The position numbers and the translations under genes are program-made. The notes below the pieces were generated by a model. The model worked only from the letters and a program-made list of their open reading frames with translations. It ran no database searches and was not told the origin of the DNA. Below are positions 41,034 through 57,664 of a stretch of 64,000 bases of DNA, piece after piece. Source of the DNA: Escherichia phage 348Ecol098PP; the sequence record OR062947.1. The stretch is one strand, 5' to 3'. The stretch's first letter is position 1. Every line of letters starts with the position of its first letter.

Positions 41034-41107
41034 GGCCCTGTAGCTCAACGGTTAGCAGCAGTCCCCTCATAAGGGAAAGGTTACCAGTTCGAATCTGGTC
41101 TGGGTCA
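41034..41107 (+). tRNA. tRNA with anticodon CAU (Ile2/Met type; T4 tRNA-Ile uses CAU)
   Basis: Hand-folded cloverleaf: acceptor GGCCCUG, T-arm ACCAG-UUCGAAU-CUGGU, anticodon loop CUCAUAA; one acceptor mismatch and a weak outer anticodon-stem pair; no encoded CCA. Confidence 0.55.
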
Positions 41108-41113
41108 TATATT

Positions 41114-41189
41114 CGAGGCATAGCTCAGAAGGAAGAGCAAGGACCTTCTAAGTCCTAGGTCGTAGGTTCGATCCCTACTGTCTCGACCA
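41114..41189 (+). tRNA. tRNA-Arg (anticodon UCU)
   Basis: Hand-folded canonical cloverleaf: acceptor CGAGGCA/UGUCUCG, D-arm GCUC-AGAAGGAA-GAGC, anticodon arm AGGAC-CUUCUAA-GUCCU, T-arm GUAGG-UUCGAUC-CCUAC, encoded CCA. Confidence 0.8.
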
Positions 41190-43043: not shown

Positions 43044-43202
43044 ACTTTAATTATTTGGTTCGATGAAAATGAAGAAACATACTGTGTGAATATTGGTGAA
43101 AGTCCAATGCCTGAATTTGAATCCTCAGATAAAAACTCTGTTGTATCTTGGGCTGAAGGTTATAAAGCAGCTAAAGGTGACGTTGAAATAATTTACATCT
43201 AA
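43038..43202 (+). CDS. Small hypothetical protein (54 aa)
   Basis: Below ORF-track cutoff; preceded by the exact promoter/5'UTR cassette also found at 6395-6440. Confidence 0.35.
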   Translation: MTTLIIWFDENEETYCVNIGESPMPEFESSDKNSVVSWAEGYKAAKGDVEIIYI

Positions 43203-43220
43203 GTAAGTTTATGTTATAGT
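43191..43220 (+). promoter_or_regulatory. Early promoter ATTTAC / TGTTATAGT
   Basis: -35 43191-43196, TATAGT 43215-43220; followed by AGTCCTATCAAA box. Confidence 0.5.
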
Positions 43221-43248
43221 AGTCCTATCAAATCAAGAGGAAAACAAA

Positions 43249-43546: not shown

Positions 43547-44140
43547 ATGAACACACTGAAGAAACTTGTCGAATTCATCCGCACTAAATTGGGTACTGCT
43601 ATGGCTAAAAATCTGACTGTCGAAGAACAGTATAACGCAGCTGCAGATAAGTTGATTACCCAAATCAAAGAACTAAAAACGGCTTCTGTTAAATCTATTA
43701 ATGAAGAAAAACGTATTCGCGAACTTGTTAATGAAAAGAACAAGCAAGCCGCTTCTAAGGAACGTGAAATTCGTAAGCTCCTGGCCGAAGGACAAGATGT
43801 TACCATGCATGCTAAGCTTGGTCTTCTGTATCGTCGAACTGCCGAACAACTTAATACAAAAGCTGACGGGTATGCCGCTATGCGAATTGAAATTGCTCGT
43901 AAGGTGGTTGAACTTGATGATGCTCGTCAGAACCTGGCAATCAAACTCGAATACATTCGTGAAACTCGAGCAGCCAATGCCCTTGGTATCTCTACGGCCG
44001 ATGATGTAATTGAAATCGCTGCACTGACTAAGGTTGATATCGAAGACACTCTGACTCGTGTTGAAACGTTCAATGGCACTCCAGCAGGTGTCGAAACCAC
44101 TTCTGCTGATGTACAAGAATATATTAACTCTTTGAAATAA
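43547..44140 (+). CDS. Coiled-coil protein with PspA/IM30-like character
   Basis: 197 aa from [10 protein letters not shown]; long amphipathic heptad pattern; segment pattern reminiscent of PspA (weak, by eye). Confidence 0.35.
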
Positions 44141-44148
44141 AATAATAC

Positions 44149-44170
44149 GGAGGACTCCGGTCCTCCTTTT
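44149..44170 (+). terminator. Rho-independent terminator
   Basis: GGAGGAC-TCCG-GTCCTCC + TTTT. Confidence 0.55.
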
Positions 44171-44189
44171 GGATAATAAAGGAGTTAAC

Positions 44190-44792
44190 ATGCGAAACCA
44201 AAATAATGATATTGACTCAATGTTCGAAGAGTTCCGAGATAAGGTAAATCCACCTACGTCTTTAGTTGATTCATTACGATATGTTGCAACCGGACGTAAA
44301 TGGTACTGGTCGTCTTCTTATGAGACCACCGAGAAAACGGCTAGCCATAGCAGAAAATCTTTATTAGCCCCAGGTATTATGATTCATGATATCGGAGCTA
44401 TTGCTAAACTAGTTGCAGATCATGATATTAGATTCACCGATTTCGTTGCTCCTACATGGTCTGTTTGTTGTTTAAACACTGAATTGGAATATATCAGCGA
44501 ACGCTCTGAAGATTATTATGGTTTTAGAGATAAGCTTCTGAGGTCTAATATGTTTTATATCGATACAGAAGTTCTAGTCGATAATAAAAAATATTACTTT
44601 ACGTTAATCATCGATTCTGAAACTATGTATGAAGGCAAGCCTTTGCTTAAAAGAGTTGATGCTTTAAGTGCTATTGATGCGCTTTATGAAACCATGGTTG
44701 TTAGTCCTAATTTCACTAACAATTTAATCCTTGAGCAATTTATTATGGAATGTAGAGAATATGTCAAAGCCAACCCTGTACATGCCAAGTAA
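44190..44792 (+). CDS. Hypothetical protein with C-terminal FIMECR tail
   Basis: 200 aa from MRNQNN; ends ...EQFIMECREYVKANPVHAK. Confidence 0.45.
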   Translation: MRNQNNDIDSMFEEFRDKVNPPTSLVDSLRYVATGRKWYWSSSYETTEKTASHSRKSLLAPGIMIHDIGAIAKLVADHDIRFTDFVAPTWSVCCLNTELEYISERSEDYYGFRDKLLRSNMFYIDTEVLVDNKKYYFTLIIDSETMYEGKPLLKRVDALSAIDALYETMVVSPNFTNNLILEQFIMECREYVKANPVHAK

Positions 44793-45153
44793 GCCCTGGG
44801 CATACGAATACAAACGTAAATTAATCCCAAACGAAGTACTATTTGGCCCTATTTTAGCTTTAGCATTTTTAATCTTTATGATTATAGGAGCTGTTTTAGA
44901 TTCTAGTGAAGTTATATCGTCTGATGCAGTGTTTTTACTTATTATAGCTGGGTCGTTTATTGTGCCATTTTTATTAATGCCTATTAATTGGGTGGGATAT
45001 TGGTACCAAGGACGTCATCACAGAGCTAGAGTACGCGAATGGAAAATTCAATGTGCAAAAGCAAGAGCTCAATATGACGAGGCTGTTAAAAAATATGAAT
45101 ATGACGAAGCCATGGAATTCGTTAAGGAGATAAGATGCAAAAGCCTGAACTGA
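44761..45153 (+). CDS. Small membrane protein with C-terminal EFVKEIRCK tail
   Basis: 130 aa from ATG at 44761; two hydrophobic helices. Confidence 0.45.
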   Translation: MSKPTLYMPSKPWAYEYKRKLIPNEVLFGPILALAFLIFMIIGAVLDSSEVISSDAVFLLIIAGSFIVPFLLMPINWVGYWYQGRHHRARVREWKIQCAKARAQYDEAVKKYEYDEAMEFVKEIRCKSLN

Positions 45154-45162
45154 ATTTATGCT

Positions 45163-45192
45163 GTTTACGCTTCTCAAATGATTAGTTATAAT
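45163..45192 (+). promoter_or_regulatory. Early promoter GTTTAC / TATAAT
   Basis: GTTTAC 45163-45168, 18-nt spacer, TATAAT 45187-45192. Confidence 0.5.
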
Positions 45193-45255
45193 GAACTCCT
45201 AGCTAGACGTGAAAATGAAACAATCGAAAACTTTATTAAGGAATGTAGAAAATGA
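45178..45255 (+). pseudogene. Vestigial 25-codon ORF retaining the ENFIKECRK tail
   Basis: MISYNELLARRENETIENFIKECRK; contains the -10 of the promoter for the next gene, so likely a remnant 3' end. Confidence 0.3.
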
Positions 45256-45557
45256 GTAAGATTATTGAAATTAAAGTACCAGAGTTTAATGATGCCAAAT
45301 CCGCTTCAGATGCAATTTATAAACTTCTGAATCAAGCTGAACGTATCGAAGAAGAAGCAACAAAGATCGCAGACCAATATGCCGTATCATTTTCTGTAGG
45401 TGATTATGGTAGCGGTCGTACTTATTATCCTAAGGGTGAAATCGTATCCCAGTGGATGAAAAATGAAATTGAAAATAATGGTGGCGATGTTAAGCGTGAA
45501 GGTAATGGTTACGTTATTACTGAAGGTGCTTGGGTTTCGTCTTCTGCGTTGTGCTAA
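45252..45557 (+). CDS. Small protein, WVSSSxxC-tail family member 1
   Basis: 101 aa; ends GAWVSSSALC. Confidence 0.5.
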   Translation: MSKIIEIKVPEFNDAKSASDAIYKLLNQAERIEEEATKIADQYAVSFSVGDYGSGRTYYPKGEIVSQWMKNEIENNGGDVKREGNGYVITEGAWVSSSALC

Positions 45558-45566
45558 GGAATCATT

Positions 45567-45839
45567 ATGTCTAAAGAACAAACCGAACTGGCTGAAGCTG
45601 TAGCAAAAATCTATGCAGCTATTGAGGCTGCCAAAGAAATTGCTGATAAACAAAACACAACATTCGACTTGCACCCAGCTTATGGTATGGGTGGAACCTA
45701 TCATTCACCCGGACATCTTAAAGCCGATCTTGAACGTTGTACAAAAAACGGCTATGCTGAATGGGCTGACGTTTACCAATACGACTACAACCTGAGCCTC
45801 GAAACTGGTGGTTGGGTCGCATCTTCTCACACTTGCTAA
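45567..45839 (+). CDS. Small protein, WVSSSxxC-tail family member 2
   Basis: 90 aa; ends GGWVASSHTC. Confidence 0.5.
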   Translation: MSKEQTELAEAVAKIYAAIEAAKEIADKQNTTFDLHPAYGMGGTYHSPGHLKADLERCTKNGYAEWADVYQYDYNLSLETGGWVASSHTC

Positions 45840-45848
45840 GGAAACTAT

Positions 45849-46046
45849 ATGTCTCGTGAATTAGATTGTGCTGTACGTACCGCAGTAGCTGCCCTGGAAA
45901 ACCTGTTCCAAATTGCAACAGAAGAACGCGAAGAAGTTACATTGTGGATTGAAGATAACGCAGGTCTGAATCTCCAGGACGCGATCTCATTATCCCACAA
46001 TAGTATCACTGTTCAAGGCTGGGTATCATCTAGTTATTCTTGCTAA
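45849..46046 (+). CDS. Small protein, WVSSSxxC-tail family member 3
   Basis: 65 aa; ends QGWVSSSYSC. Confidence 0.5.
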   Translation: MSRELDCAVRTAVAALENLFQIATEEREEVTLWIEDNAGLNLQDAISLSHNSITVQGWVSSSYSC

Positions 46047-46050
46047 AACA

Positions 46051-46088
46051 GTTTACAACAAGATAGGGCTATGTTATAGTAGTCCTAT
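46051..46088 (+). promoter_or_regulatory. Early promoter GTTTAC / TGTTATAGT with imperfect IR ATAGGGCT / AGTCCTAT
   Basis: GTTTAC 46051-46056, TATAGT 46075-46080. Confidence 0.55.
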
Positions 46089-46108
46089 CAAATTAAATGG
46101 AGTCCACA

Positions 46109-46348
46109 ATGATTTATTACGAAAGTATCGGAACCAAAGTGGTTGCTAAAACCATTACTCGTGAAAAGTTTGCAAAGATATTCGATATGCGTTATAAAAA
46201 ATCTGAACACAAAGGCATCCGATTCGAAGATGCGCACTGTACAATTTGCCCTTATAATGAAGACATAAACGGTACAATCGTTCCATTGGTAGAGGCTTCA
46301 CACGATGACCTCTGGGATGAATATGATATCGCATGTCGTGAAATTTAA
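46109..46348 (+). CDS. Hypothetical protein
   Basis: 79 aa from MIYYESIG with SD GGAG. Confidence 0.4.
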   Translation: MIYYESIGTKVVAKTITREKFAKIFDMRYKKSEHKGIRFEDAHCTICPYNEDINGTIVPLVEASHDDLWDEYDIACREI

Positions 46349-46376
46349 GTTAATGAATTAATCCGAGGAAAATATT

Positions 46377-47333
46377 ATGATGTTAGTTATTGGTTCTCGT
46401 GCACTTCACTATCACGGTCTTATTGATTCTAGCGCTATCAAAAATAGTGATTGGGACTTTATTGCGGACCAAGGTTCTTGGAATGCATTCAAAAATCAAA
46501 TGATGGGTGTATATGTTCACCAAGATAACCCTAATGTTCAAGTTTTCAAATGCTTCCATAATGGACGCGAAACTCATTTTGAAGCATATATTGTTCCGGC
46601 AATCACTAATGTCCGTGAATTAGTCGGTGAACTCACTCCTGAAGATTTCACGTCTTCTTATGACCTTTTAAAATACGCCAAGAAAAATTTGACTAAAGAC
46701 CGTTTGAACGGGTTTTACTGGGCAACTCCTGAGATATGTCTTGCAATTAAGATGTCTCATCGTTTCAAGAAAAATAATCCATTCTTTTTAAAGACTATGA
46801 ACCATATTCAGTATCTTCGTGGTAAAGGTGTTACACTGAACGATGAACTTACTGAAATTATGCTGAAACGCCAGAAAGAAACCTTGAACTATGCTCACCC
46901 AGTTCTTGACACTTCTAAAAGTGCGTTCTTTAAAGATGACATCTATACATATGACCATGATACTATTCATGAAGCCATTGCACTAACAGACCGTCCAGCG
47001 TATACATTTTATATGAAAGATGGTTCTGAAGTCATGACCTCACGCGAGAAGTTCGAATCGTTACCCGAAATGATTAAACTGGCTGGTGTATACGAAGAAT
47101 CATGTGTACTAGCATTAGAACGTTCTCAAATTCCTAATGACTTTAAAATTAACCCTGAAGCCAGTTTTATGATGGCATTGGAAAAAGTCTGTACAAGCAT
47201 CACCTCCGGTTGGTTCCGTGAATACGCATACGAGAACTATTATGAAGTAGTGGCTATGTATCATAAGCTCGGCAAAAATGATTACGTCAAACGTTTCAAA
47301 CAAAATTTCCATATGGTAAAACCTTTCAAATAA
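46377..47333 (+). CDS. Hypothetical protein (318 aa)
   Basis: Long ORF; N-terminal IGSRAL...SDWDF loosely resembles a nucleotidyltransferase motif (weak). Confidence 0.45.
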   Translation: MMLVIGSRALHYHGLIDSSAIKNSDWDFIADQGSWNAFKNQMMGVYVHQDNPNVQVFKCFHNGRETHFEAYIVPAITNVRELVGELTPEDFTSSYDLLKYAKKNLTKDRLNGFYWATPEICLAIKMSHRFKKNNPFFLKTMNHIQYLRGKGVTLNDELTEIMLKRQKETLNYAHPVLDTSKSAFFKDDIYTYDHDTIHEAIALTDRPAYTFYMKDGSEVMTSREKFESLPEMIKLAGVYEESCVLALERSQIPNDFKINPEASFMMALEKVCTSITSGWFREYAYENYYEVVAMYHKLGKNDYVKRFKQNFHMVKPFK

Positions 47334-47345
47334 CTTCACAAAACT

Positions 47346-47383
47346 GTTTACGCAATTATAGGACTATGTTATAGTAGTCCTAT
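47346..47383 (+). promoter_or_regulatory. Early promoter GTTTAC / TGTTATAGT inside IR AATAGGACTA / TAGTCCTATT
   Basis: GTTTAC 47346-47351, TATAGT 47370-47375; IR arms 47357-47366 and 47374-47383. Confidence 0.55.
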
Positions 47384-47403
47384 TAAAACATGAGGAGAAT
47401 ATT

Positions 47404-47709
47404 ATGAAATTAGGCGAAACCAACCGAATTGGTCTTTTAACAATATTTGCATCACCTTTTTACGCAACTCTTTCTGTTGCAGTATTACAAAAGGCTTACA
47501 GTATGGATGGTGTTCCTGGTTTTGTATTCTTATCACCGTTTTTATTATTCGTCGGAGCTTTGTTATTATATGCCACGACTAGTTTCGACCATAATGTCTG
47601 GGTCAATTATAAATGTAAATTGTCCGAAGAAGAACACGCAGAAGCTCGTAAAAAAGCTATTGAATCTACCAATCTAGAAAATTTCATTAAAGAATGTCGA
47701 GGAAAATAA
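47404..47709 (+). CDS. Small membrane protein with C-terminal ENFIKECRGK tail
   Basis: 101 aa; two hydrophobic helices. Confidence 0.5.
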   Translation: MKLGETNRIGLLTIFASPFYATLSVAVLQKAYSMDGVPGFVFLSPFLLFVGALLLYATTSFDHNVWVNYKCKLSEEEHAEARKKAIESTNLENFIKECRGK

Positions 47710-48397: not shown

Positions 48398-48876
48398 TGA
48401 TTAACAATAATATAGACGATGGCAATGAAGGTATTTCGTATTATTCAGTAGATTGGACAGGATGTCCATCCTACTTAGTGAAACATATTTGCCAAGAATT
48501 TAAAATCGACCAGCCAGCAGGTATTATCGTGAACAGATACATTAATGGATATCAACCTATCGATGAAGTAATACGAACAACTCAAGCTGAGCTTGAAAAG
48601 TTTTTCAATAAGTGCCAATGGATAACAGGATGGATTATATTTGTACCGTCGGTATGGTTTTTCGGTACTAAGGTGAGTTCTTTCGGTTTTGTTGATATTA
48701 TTGCTATCTTATTAGCATCTACTATCGTAAGTATTATTGGTGGTATTATTGGTGGAGGTACTGTAGGCATCATTATTAATCTTGTTAAAAGTAGTTTACA
48801 GGAACGTAAAGACAAGATAAAAGCCAAGAATAATGAAGTTGAACGTTTTATTACCGAATGCAGGAATTTGAGATGA
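48397..48876 (+). CDS. Membrane protein with C-terminal ERFITECRNLR tail
   Basis: 159 aa; Gly/Ile-rich helices IIGGIIGGGTVGIII. Confidence 0.5.
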   Translation: MINNNIDDGNEGISYYSVDWTGCPSYLVKHICQEFKIDQPAGIIVNRYINGYQPIDEVIRTTQAELEKFFNKCQWITGWIIFVPSVWFFGTKVSSFGFVDIIAILLASTIVSIIGGIIGGGTVGIIINLVKSSLQERKDKIKAKNNEVERFITECRNLR

Positions 48877-49565: not shown

Positions 49566-49589
49566 TACCTCCTATAAACGTGGGAGGTA
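49566..49589 (+). promoter_or_regulatory. Gene e translation-initiation hairpin: IR TACCTCC / GGAGGTA with TATAAAcg in the loop
   Basis: Arms 49566-49572 and 49583-49589; right arm is the SD of e; loop carries a late-promoter-like box. Confidence 0.5.
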
Positions 49590-49591
49590 TT

Positions 49592-50080
49592 ATGAATATA
49601 TTTGAAATGCTTCGTAATGACGAAGGTCTTAGACTGACTTTATATAAAGACACTGAAGGCTTTTGGACGATTGGCATAGGCCATTTAGTAACAAAGAACC
49701 CGTCTTTAGCCGTAGCTAAAGCTGAACTTGACAGAATGATCGGTCGTAAATGCAACGGTACAATTACCCTTGATGAGGCTGAAAAGCTATTTAATGAAGA
49801 CGTTGATAAAGCCGTTCGCGGAATCTTGGGTAATGCTAAACTTAAACCGGTATACGATTCTTTAGATGCAGTTCGTCGATGTGCATTGGTCAATATGGTC
49901 TTCCAAATGGGTGTAGCAGGCGTCGCCGGTTTTACTAATTCTCTTCGTATGCTTCAACAGAAACGTTGGGATGAAGCGGCAGTAAATCTAGCCCAATCTA
50001 AATGGTATCGTCAGACACCTAATCGCGCGAAACGCGTAATCTCAACATTTAAAACAGGAACTTGGAAAGCGTATATATGA
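49592..50080 (+). CDS. e: Endolysin (T4 lysozyme)
   Basis: 162 aa from [32 protein letters not shown]...; close match to remembered T4 lysozyme. Confidence 0.95.
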
Positions 50081-51100: not shown

Positions 51101-51130
51101 GTTTACGCTTAAGTATTAATATGGTATAAT
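51101..51130 (+). promoter_or_regulatory. Early promoter GTTTAC / TGGTATAAT
   Basis: GTTTAC 51101-51106, 18-nt spacer, TATAAT 51125-51130. Confidence 0.55.
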
Positions 51131-57607: not shown

Positions 57608-57645
57608 TTTACAACTTGGTAGGACTATGTTATAGTAGTCCTACC
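57607..57645 (+). promoter_or_regulatory. Early promoter inside IR GGTAGGACTA / TAGTCCTACC
   Basis: GTTTAC 57607-57612, TATAGT 57631-57636; IR 57618-57627 and 57636-57645. Confidence 0.55.
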
Positions 57646-57664
57646 AAAACAAATGGAGAACAAA

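Follow-up and report, generated by a model that had tools for sequence, protein, structure and literature searches.

A probable remnant of the early gene e.3, carrying a predicted promoter and the initiation region of the next gene, in an RB69-like phage

The 64 000-nucleotide stretch of phage DNA analysed here (the window) contains a 25-codon open reading frame at 45178-45255 on the plus strand (translation MISYNELLARRENETIENFIKECRK), the TGA of which (45253-45255) overlaps the ATG of the next gene (45252-45254) as ATGA at 45252-45255. The question raised by this locus is whether so short a frame is a gene, part of one or a chance occurrence. The initial annotation described a full tail motif, the ATGA junction and a GTTTAC/TATAAT pair with its -10 box inside the frame, all of which are found in the sequence, and interpreted the frame as the 3' end of a tail-bearing gene, stranded when a promoter cassette replaced the gene body by recombination at conserved gene 3' ends. 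Short open reading frames are common in the window (139 of at least 20 aa in 10 kb), so that a length of 25 codons is not unusual by itself. The non-random feature of the micro-ORF is its identity with the end of a known gene. A search of Rfam gave no RNA family match in 44000-46500.

A sequence search with the 2-kb region around the micro-ORF gave 96-98% identity to over 130 RB69-like coliphages (genus Mosigvirus), with moha (98.3%) and moskry as the best matches to the window; by this similarity the source is an RB69-like T4-type coliphage (Mosigvirus). The setting of the micro-ORF is a variable early region; the T4-type lysozyme gene e follows downstream at 49580-50080, after a Nudix gene, and genes for tRNA-Met and tRNA-Arg are located at 41034-41189. 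The micro-ORF is surrounded by the genes of the e.8-to-e.1 block, which are early, small and non-essential and share the plus strand; their annotated order in RB69 is e.6, e.5, e.4, e.3, ORF139c/138c, 137c, 136c, 135c, 134c, 133c, 132c and e.2. Gene e.4 (44761-45153, plus strand) is intact according to the ORF list, the RB69 annotation and a match to phrog_2604 (E = 5e-62); it encodes a 130-aa predicted membrane protein with the tail ...EFVKEIRCKSLN, and its 3' end overlaps the start of the e.3 remnant described below. The downstream gene (45252-45557, plus strand, 101 aa) is identified by the ORF list, the RB69 annotation and PHROG as a homologue of RB69 ORF139c/138c. It opens a tandem array of three small paralogues (45252-45557, 45567-45839 and 45849-46046) that share a C-terminal G-x-W-V-(S/A)-S-S-x-x-C signature (GAWVSSSALC, GGWVASSHTC and QGWVSSSYSC) and belong to the families phrog_899 and phrog_4882. 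In RB69 the first of the three is split into ORF139c and ORF138c, and the Gaprivervirus phages TH54 and P479 carry the same paralogue pair after e.3.

For many relatives the match to the 2-kb query was broken into two parts, which together extended over about 2240 bases of the relative as against 2001 of the window. Alignment of the window with moha, RB69, mar007P3, KAW3E185 and AV118 located the extra DNA: the window and moha read ATGCAAAAGCCT followed by 16 nt (GAACTGAATTTATGCT) and GTTTACGC..., and RB69, mar007P3, KAW3E185 and AV118 have 255 nt in place of the 16. This is the position of gene e.3, which in RB69 is 360 nt long and encodes 119 aa (MQKPQLLTVWPSLGEN...KKVYASQMISYNELLAKRENETIENFIKECRK, ending ...VYASQMISYNELLAKRENETIENFIKECRK). 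In RB69 and about 110 relatives the orthologous place, with e.4 on one side and the ORF139c homologue on the other, is occupied by the full-length gene (119 aa, ...ENFIKECRK), so that the description of the micro-ORF as the stranded 3' end of a tail-bearing gene stands. In the alignment the window is identical to intact e.3 from GTTTAC through the ATGA junction, and these last 93 nt are identical or nearly identical to e.3 of RB69, mar007P3, KAW3E185 and AV118. The micro-ORF corresponds to e.3 codons 95-119, with one K-to-R difference from RB69 and 96-100% identity to the end of e.3, and its ATG is an internal methionine codon of that gene. A tblastn search with e.3 residues 90-119 gave 93-100% identity in the phages that carry the deletion.

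The net loss of 239 nt shifts the reading frame and removes e.3 codons ~5-89 (about 85 codons). The hydrophobicity of RB69 e.3 places its hydrophobic core at residues ~15-48 and ~62-79, entirely within the deleted part. What is left of the 5' end is a 16-codon stub (45135-45185, plus strand) that starts with the ATG at 45135 after the strong Shine-Dalgarno sequence AAGGAG, encodes the first four residues MQKP and then continues out of frame to a stop (MQKPELNLCCLRFSND). Compared with RB69 e.3 (AAP76042) and T4 e.3 (NP_049739) of phrog_2330, the locus keeps the MQKP start, codons 95-119 and the synteny (e.4 upstream, an ORF139c-type gene downstream and the start/stop overlap, as seen in the RB69 and moha annotations and the alignments); unlike them, it is frameshifted and lacks every hydrophobic segment. 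A full-length e.3 protein, with about 117-124 aa and a hydrophobic membrane core, is thus absent from the window. The family is one of predicted membrane proteins with no assigned function. IMG/VR gave five e.3 loci, and the family was therefore surveyed by tblastn on GenBank phages, where 665 of 701 hits, in Tequatrovirus, Mosigvirus and Gaprivervirus, cover at least 80% of the protein; e.3 is widely conserved. The micro-ORF is very probably a fragment of a pseudogene, namely the final 25 codons of e.3, a T-even early gene, after an internal deletion, and the locus as a whole would be non-functional as a member of the e.3 family, judging from what the sequence retains.

The deletion junction lies at 45162/45163 and ends exactly at GTTTAC. 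Immediately upstream is an 11-nt patch, GAATTTATGCT (45152-45162, plus strand), which is found only in deletion alleles; intact e.3 has CTTAACCGTAT there. The patch and the sequence that it displaces are of equal length, and joined to the e.3 body the patch would keep the reading frame and yield MQKPQLKLCWPS. It means that the deletion was not clean, and the need for a second step or a template switch counts against a simple deletion. A candidate template is present 1.7 kb downstream within the ORF134c homologue, where ACTGAAATTATGCTG (46851-46865, plus strand) reproduces the junction 15-mer of phage FL31 (its form of the patch, GAAATTATGCT, with the flanking ACT and G) without a mismatch and differs from the junction of the window by one base. 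Chance matches to this 15-mer at up to one mismatch are expected 0.02 times per window, and the patch was probably copied from ORF134c by template switching or a short ectopic conversion rather than being random filler. IMG/VR was also considered as a source of the junction filler and was rejected: the 58 exact 15-mer hits comprise 57 chance matches and one contig with the same deletion allele (phiE142-like, L037).

Given the patch, the deletion joins ...TATGCTG/GCC to ...AAAAAG/GTTTAC with 1 nt of microhomology. When a synthetic sequence of patch plus e.3 body was used as a BLAST query, no intact e.3 with the patch was recovered, the one partial exception being the record of OLB35 (MH992122, flagged UNVERIFIED), in which the patch precedes e.3 body sequence; the patch may therefore be older than the deletion and may have arisen in a still-intact variant of e.3. 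The OLB35 record has a tandem duplication of the segment from the 3' part of e.4 to the 5' part of e.3 (560-990 in L064). In its first copy the patch is followed by some 130 nt from the body of e.3 and then by a further deletion (GGCGTTGT/TTACGC), the end of which again falls at the -35 hexamer; the second copy shows the standard deletion junction. This arrangement may be real or may reflect the assembly of a mixed population.

Among 139 phage records with e.3 DNA, 110 contain the full gene, and in nearly all of the others the match starts exactly at GTTTAC. A junction-spanning query retrieved 29 GenBank records, representing about 17 distinct phages and several named species. The micro-ORF exists as a separate frame only in these 29 records, compared with about 110 in which the same sequence is the end of e.3, and in every record inspected the 25-aa remnant, being too short, is unannotated. 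The junction is identical in all ten sequences inspected, and the flanking e.4 haplotypes differ; from this combination we infer that the deletion allele had one origin and then spread among Mosigvirus by descent and homologous recombination. Within the stub, position 45147 (the first base of codon 5) occurs in three states: C in FL31, as in intact e.3; G in the window, moskry, moha, phiC120, phiE142 and PTE-Eco05; and T, which creates a TAA stop, in p000v, OLB35, LF82-1 and TH12. This variation suggests relaxed constraint and decay of the stub.

The promoter-like site at the right-hand end of the deletion (45163-45192, plus strand) consists of GTTTAC (45163-45168), a MotA-box-like sequence TTACGCTTCT (45165-45174), a 12-nt spacer and TATAAT (45187-45192). 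Read as GTTTAC-N18-TATAAT, it has its -35 element just upstream of the micro-ORF ATG and its -10 element inside the frame; sites of the form GTTTAC-N16-19-TATAAT occur three times in the window against 0.07 expected. The 30-nt sequence GTTTACGCTTCTCAAATGATTAGTTATAAT that runs from GTTTAC to TATAAT is present base for base in intact e.3, where it encodes VYASQMISYN. Window positions 45163-45192 correspond to positions 70129-70100 of the RB69 record, for which Nolan et al. (2006; PMC1524935) predicted both an early promoter, Pe:70143 (score 4.9, the lowest of 58), and a middle promoter, Pm:70132 (score 16.2, mid-range among 32). The site in the window has the same sequence and the same position relative to the downstream gene as these RB69 sites; it differs in that the A-rich AAGAAAAATAAAAAG upstream of the -35 element is replaced by CTGAATTTATGCT, so that any UP-element contribution is lost. 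The record of phage SA79RD annotates the site as a T4-type middle promoter. The consensus MotA box is (a/t)(a/t)(a/t)TGCTTtA at 12 +/- 1 bp from a -10 TAtaaT; MotA reportedly accepts departures from it. TTACGCTTCT followed by 12 nt and TATAAT fits this rule, having the GCTT core and a box that is off at three positions. The same bases read as TTTACG-N17-TATAAT are a near match to the T4-type early promoter TTTACW-N17-TAYWAT, but their early score is the lowest in RB69. These resemblances point to a predicted MotA-type middle promoter combined with a weak early promoter, for which activity is plausible; transcription would start near 45199, downstream of the micro-ORF ATG.

The two hexamers differ in their conservation. 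At the -35 position the intact alleles of Mosigvirus have GTTTAC or ATTTAC and T4 has GATTAC; in Gaprivervirus the hexamer is missing, P479 having AGATAT. The Tyr-Asn pair encoded by TAT AAT is conserved in T4, AR1 and P479, and the conservation of TATAAT could be owed to the protein rather than to a promoter. A second GTTTACGCTT...TATAAT site with an early -35 element and a GCTT MotA-box core is located at 51101-51130, downstream of gene e, and might, from its sequence, be a dual early/middle promoter like the site internal to e.3.

Variable regions of T4-type phages are known to shuffle by way of PeSL promoter/stem-loop cassettes (Arbiol et al., 2010, PMC2839356; Comeau et al., 2014, PMC4122927), which are composites of a stem-loop and a promoter, intergenic in position and repeated. 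The window has intergenic early promoters of the form GTTTACa/g-N17-TATAGT at 46052-46092, 47347-47385 and 57608-57650, with a partial copy at 43192-43232. The three share a near-identical hairpin, (A)TAGGACTATG-TTATAG-TAGTCCTA(T), across the -10 element, with fold z scores of -2.4 (46052), -2.9 (47347) and -4.4 (57608). These promoters resemble a repeated cassette of promoter and stem-loop, PeSL-like except that the stem lies over the -10 element rather than upstream, and they correspond to the high-scoring RB69 sites Pe:69254 and Pe:67959. The site internal to e.3 resembles a PeSL in being a candidate sigma-70-like promoter that adjoins an indel, in a variable region made up of non-essential early genes. 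It differs in lacking a stem-loop, a repeat and a partner cassette and in lying inside the coding sequence of an intact gene: the region 45130-45260 folds at -11.6 kcal/mol with z = +1.67, leaving the site unstructured. As a PeSL cassette the site was rejected on all three counts of stem-loop, intergenic position and repetition.

The tail motif FIKECR of the micro-ORF (45232-45249, plus strand) forms the end of a C-terminal module of about 17 aa. In a six-frame translation the pattern F[IV]xE[CI]R matched five times against 0.21 expected from shuffles, at the ends of e.5 (44739-44756), e.4 (45118-45135), the e.3 remnant, ORF133c (47683-47700) and e.2 (48847-48864). All five are on the plus strand, at most 11 codons from the gene stop and within one 4.2-kb cluster; a looser match at 2161, inside hoc but in another frame, was dismissed as chance. 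The module E-x-x-(I/L/M)-E-x-F-(I/V)-x-E-C-R is thus common to e.2, e.3, e.4, e.5 and ORF133c, which are otherwise dissimilar early proteins. The tails of T4 e.3 (...EFVIDCRKIK), e.4 (...KFVKESRCKSQS) and e.5 (...KFVKECREY...) and of AR1 e.2 (...NFITECRKLK), and those of Gaprivervirus e.3, e.4 and e.5, retain the motif. An origin of the tail as a DNA-level element, a by-product of the Shine-Dalgarno sequence of the next gene, was rejected as the sole cause because the tails in the window use different codons (TTT/TTC, AAG/AAA, TGT/TGC and AGA/AGG/CGA), because in e.2 and ORF133c the Shine-Dalgarno sequence of the next gene comes after the motif and because the amino acids are shared by T4, RB69 and Gaprivervirus, in which the codons and surrounding DNA have diverged.

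With hhalign, BLASTP and PHROG cross-hits, only the C-terminal 17-41 residues of these proteins could be aligned confidently (probability 66-78%). Full-length cross-hits among e.2, e.3, e.4 and ORF133c are weak (E = 0.001-0.1), and full-length paralogy of these four proteins was not accepted. The tail is accordingly a short shared C-terminal protein module, possibly derived from old duplications. No Pfam family scored above threshold for e.2-e.5, ORF133c or the downstream paralogues. Literature searches found nothing on a shared C-terminal module and nothing usable on e.3, e.4 and e.5 or on transcription-start data for T4.

Other stranded ends occur in this cluster. T4 e.2 (102 aa; 1653-1961 in L066) is truncated and has no tail, compared with AR1 e.2 (162 aa; 1072-1560 in L074) and e.2 of the window (159 aa). 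Among PHROG families, phrog_35580 (36 aa, the e.2 tail) and phrog_37104 (59 aa, the e.4 C-terminus) are, like the e.3 remnant, C-terminal pieces left after truncation that still carry the tail; unlike it, they come from different genes and different lesions. In P479 the place upstream of e.3 that is taken by e.4 in Gaprivervirus TH54 is occupied by two small ORFs (399-663 in L073), which may be a split e.4. Recurring stranded ends of this kind fit a frequent decay of dispensable genes.

For the origin of the locus, the initial annotation had proposed that the body of a tail-bearing gene gave way to a mobile promoter cassette through the conserved 3' ends, with the junction left as a scar. The promoter-like site does lie exactly at the right breakpoint, PeSL shuffling is known in the variable regions of T4-type phages and the tail recurs in five clustered genes. 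The identical promoter sequence, however, is native to e.3: it occupies the same place in the intact gene of more than 100 relatives and was already predicted there in 2006. The net change is a loss of 239 nt, and the only incoming sequence is the 11-nt patch. The site has no stem-loop (z = +1.7, against -2.4 to -4.4 for the real cassettes), and no second copy of the junction 22-mer exists in the window at up to three mismatches. Nor does the right breakpoint coincide with a gene end, the tail lying 69 nt and the ATGA 89 nt farther downstream; the tail and the ATGA junction survive because they lie outside the deletion. Likewise, the block that distinguishes the RB69 lineage from T4 between e.3 and e.2 is not bounded by a tail on its right side, where ORF132c intervenes. 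Neither the replacement by a cassette nor the recombination at gene 3' ends is thus borne out, and the cassette model must be considered most improbable.

A different possibility is that the micro-ORF encodes a functional free peptide of 25 aa, made by termination-reinitiation between the stub stop (TAG, 45183-45185) and the ATG at 45178. The ATGATTAG stop/start overlap is present in the window, the whole conserved module is retained, the allele persists in about 17 distinct phages and the few changes seen within the frame are also polymorphic in intact alleles; reinitiation after the stub is conceivable for the alleles with G or C at 45147. Against this, the micro-ORF ATG has no Shine-Dalgarno sequence of its own (the upstream TTTACGCTTCTCAA is not purine-rich), and a transcript from the internal promoter would start downstream of that ATG. 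In p000v, OLB35, LF82-1 and TH12 the TAA at stub codon 5 stops translation about 30 nt upstream, which removes the coupling and indicates that it is not conserved. For some 80% of relatives this sequence is no more than the end of e.3, and its conservation is explained by the promoter and initiation region that it contains and by the youth of the allele. An independent small protein is therefore unlikely in the extreme. Equally little credence is given to the related suggestion that the module acts as a functional peptide of a portable kind, such as a common docking or targeting signal, released as a free 25-aa micro-protein in the G and C alleles by termination-reinitiation, or the mark of past modular exchange; the evidence at this locus neither requires nor supports such a reading. 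Short ORFs are abundant in AT-rich DNA and the one record with a complex arrangement, that of OLB35, is flagged UNVERIFIED, but an assembly or sequencing artefact, or a chance frame with no history, is scarcely credible given the identical junction in 29 independent GenBank records and one IMG/VR contig and the 96-100% identity of the frame to the end of e.3.

The preferred reading, decay of e.3 by internal deletion, would give the following history. In an ancestral phage the deletion would have removed the membrane-spanning sequence of e.3 and shifted the frame, leaving behind the e.3 start with its 16-codon stub, the 11-nt junction patch and the untouched last 93 nt. The patch would have come from ORF134c, possibly in an intact e.3 variant before the deletion occurred. 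The retained 93 nt hold the embedded promoter-like site and the initiation region of the next gene (45238-45255, plus strand), in which the Shine-Dalgarno sequence AAGGA (45238-45242) is followed by a 9-nt spacer and the ATGA overlap. They may persist as regulatory DNA for the downstream ORF139c-type genes, with the open frame as a by-product. The gene at 45252-45557 is the likely beneficiary of the retained predicted promoter and initiation region. We infer that it is this regulatory content, rather than a peptide, that keeps alleles with this right boundary and that the peptide itself has no function.

On this reading the locus is what is left of a known and annotated gene, with a promoter that had been predicted before, and it lies where the gain and loss of genes are familiar. 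The segment 45135-45255 should be annotated as an e.3 pseudogene containing the predicted promoter and the ribosome-binding site for the downstream gene, and not as a new micro-gene or a recombination scar; beyond correct annotation it matters little. The C-terminal module of e.2-e.5 is a genuine uncharacterised motif, to which the e.3 remnant adds no functional evidence. The breakpoint is a small case of illegitimate recombination in T-even phages, with a probable templated 11-nt patch. Gene e.3 is dispensable in nature, having been lost in about one fifth of the sequenced RB69-like phage records, and the locus illustrates cleanly how regulatory signals that lie within a coding sequence can outlive the gene.
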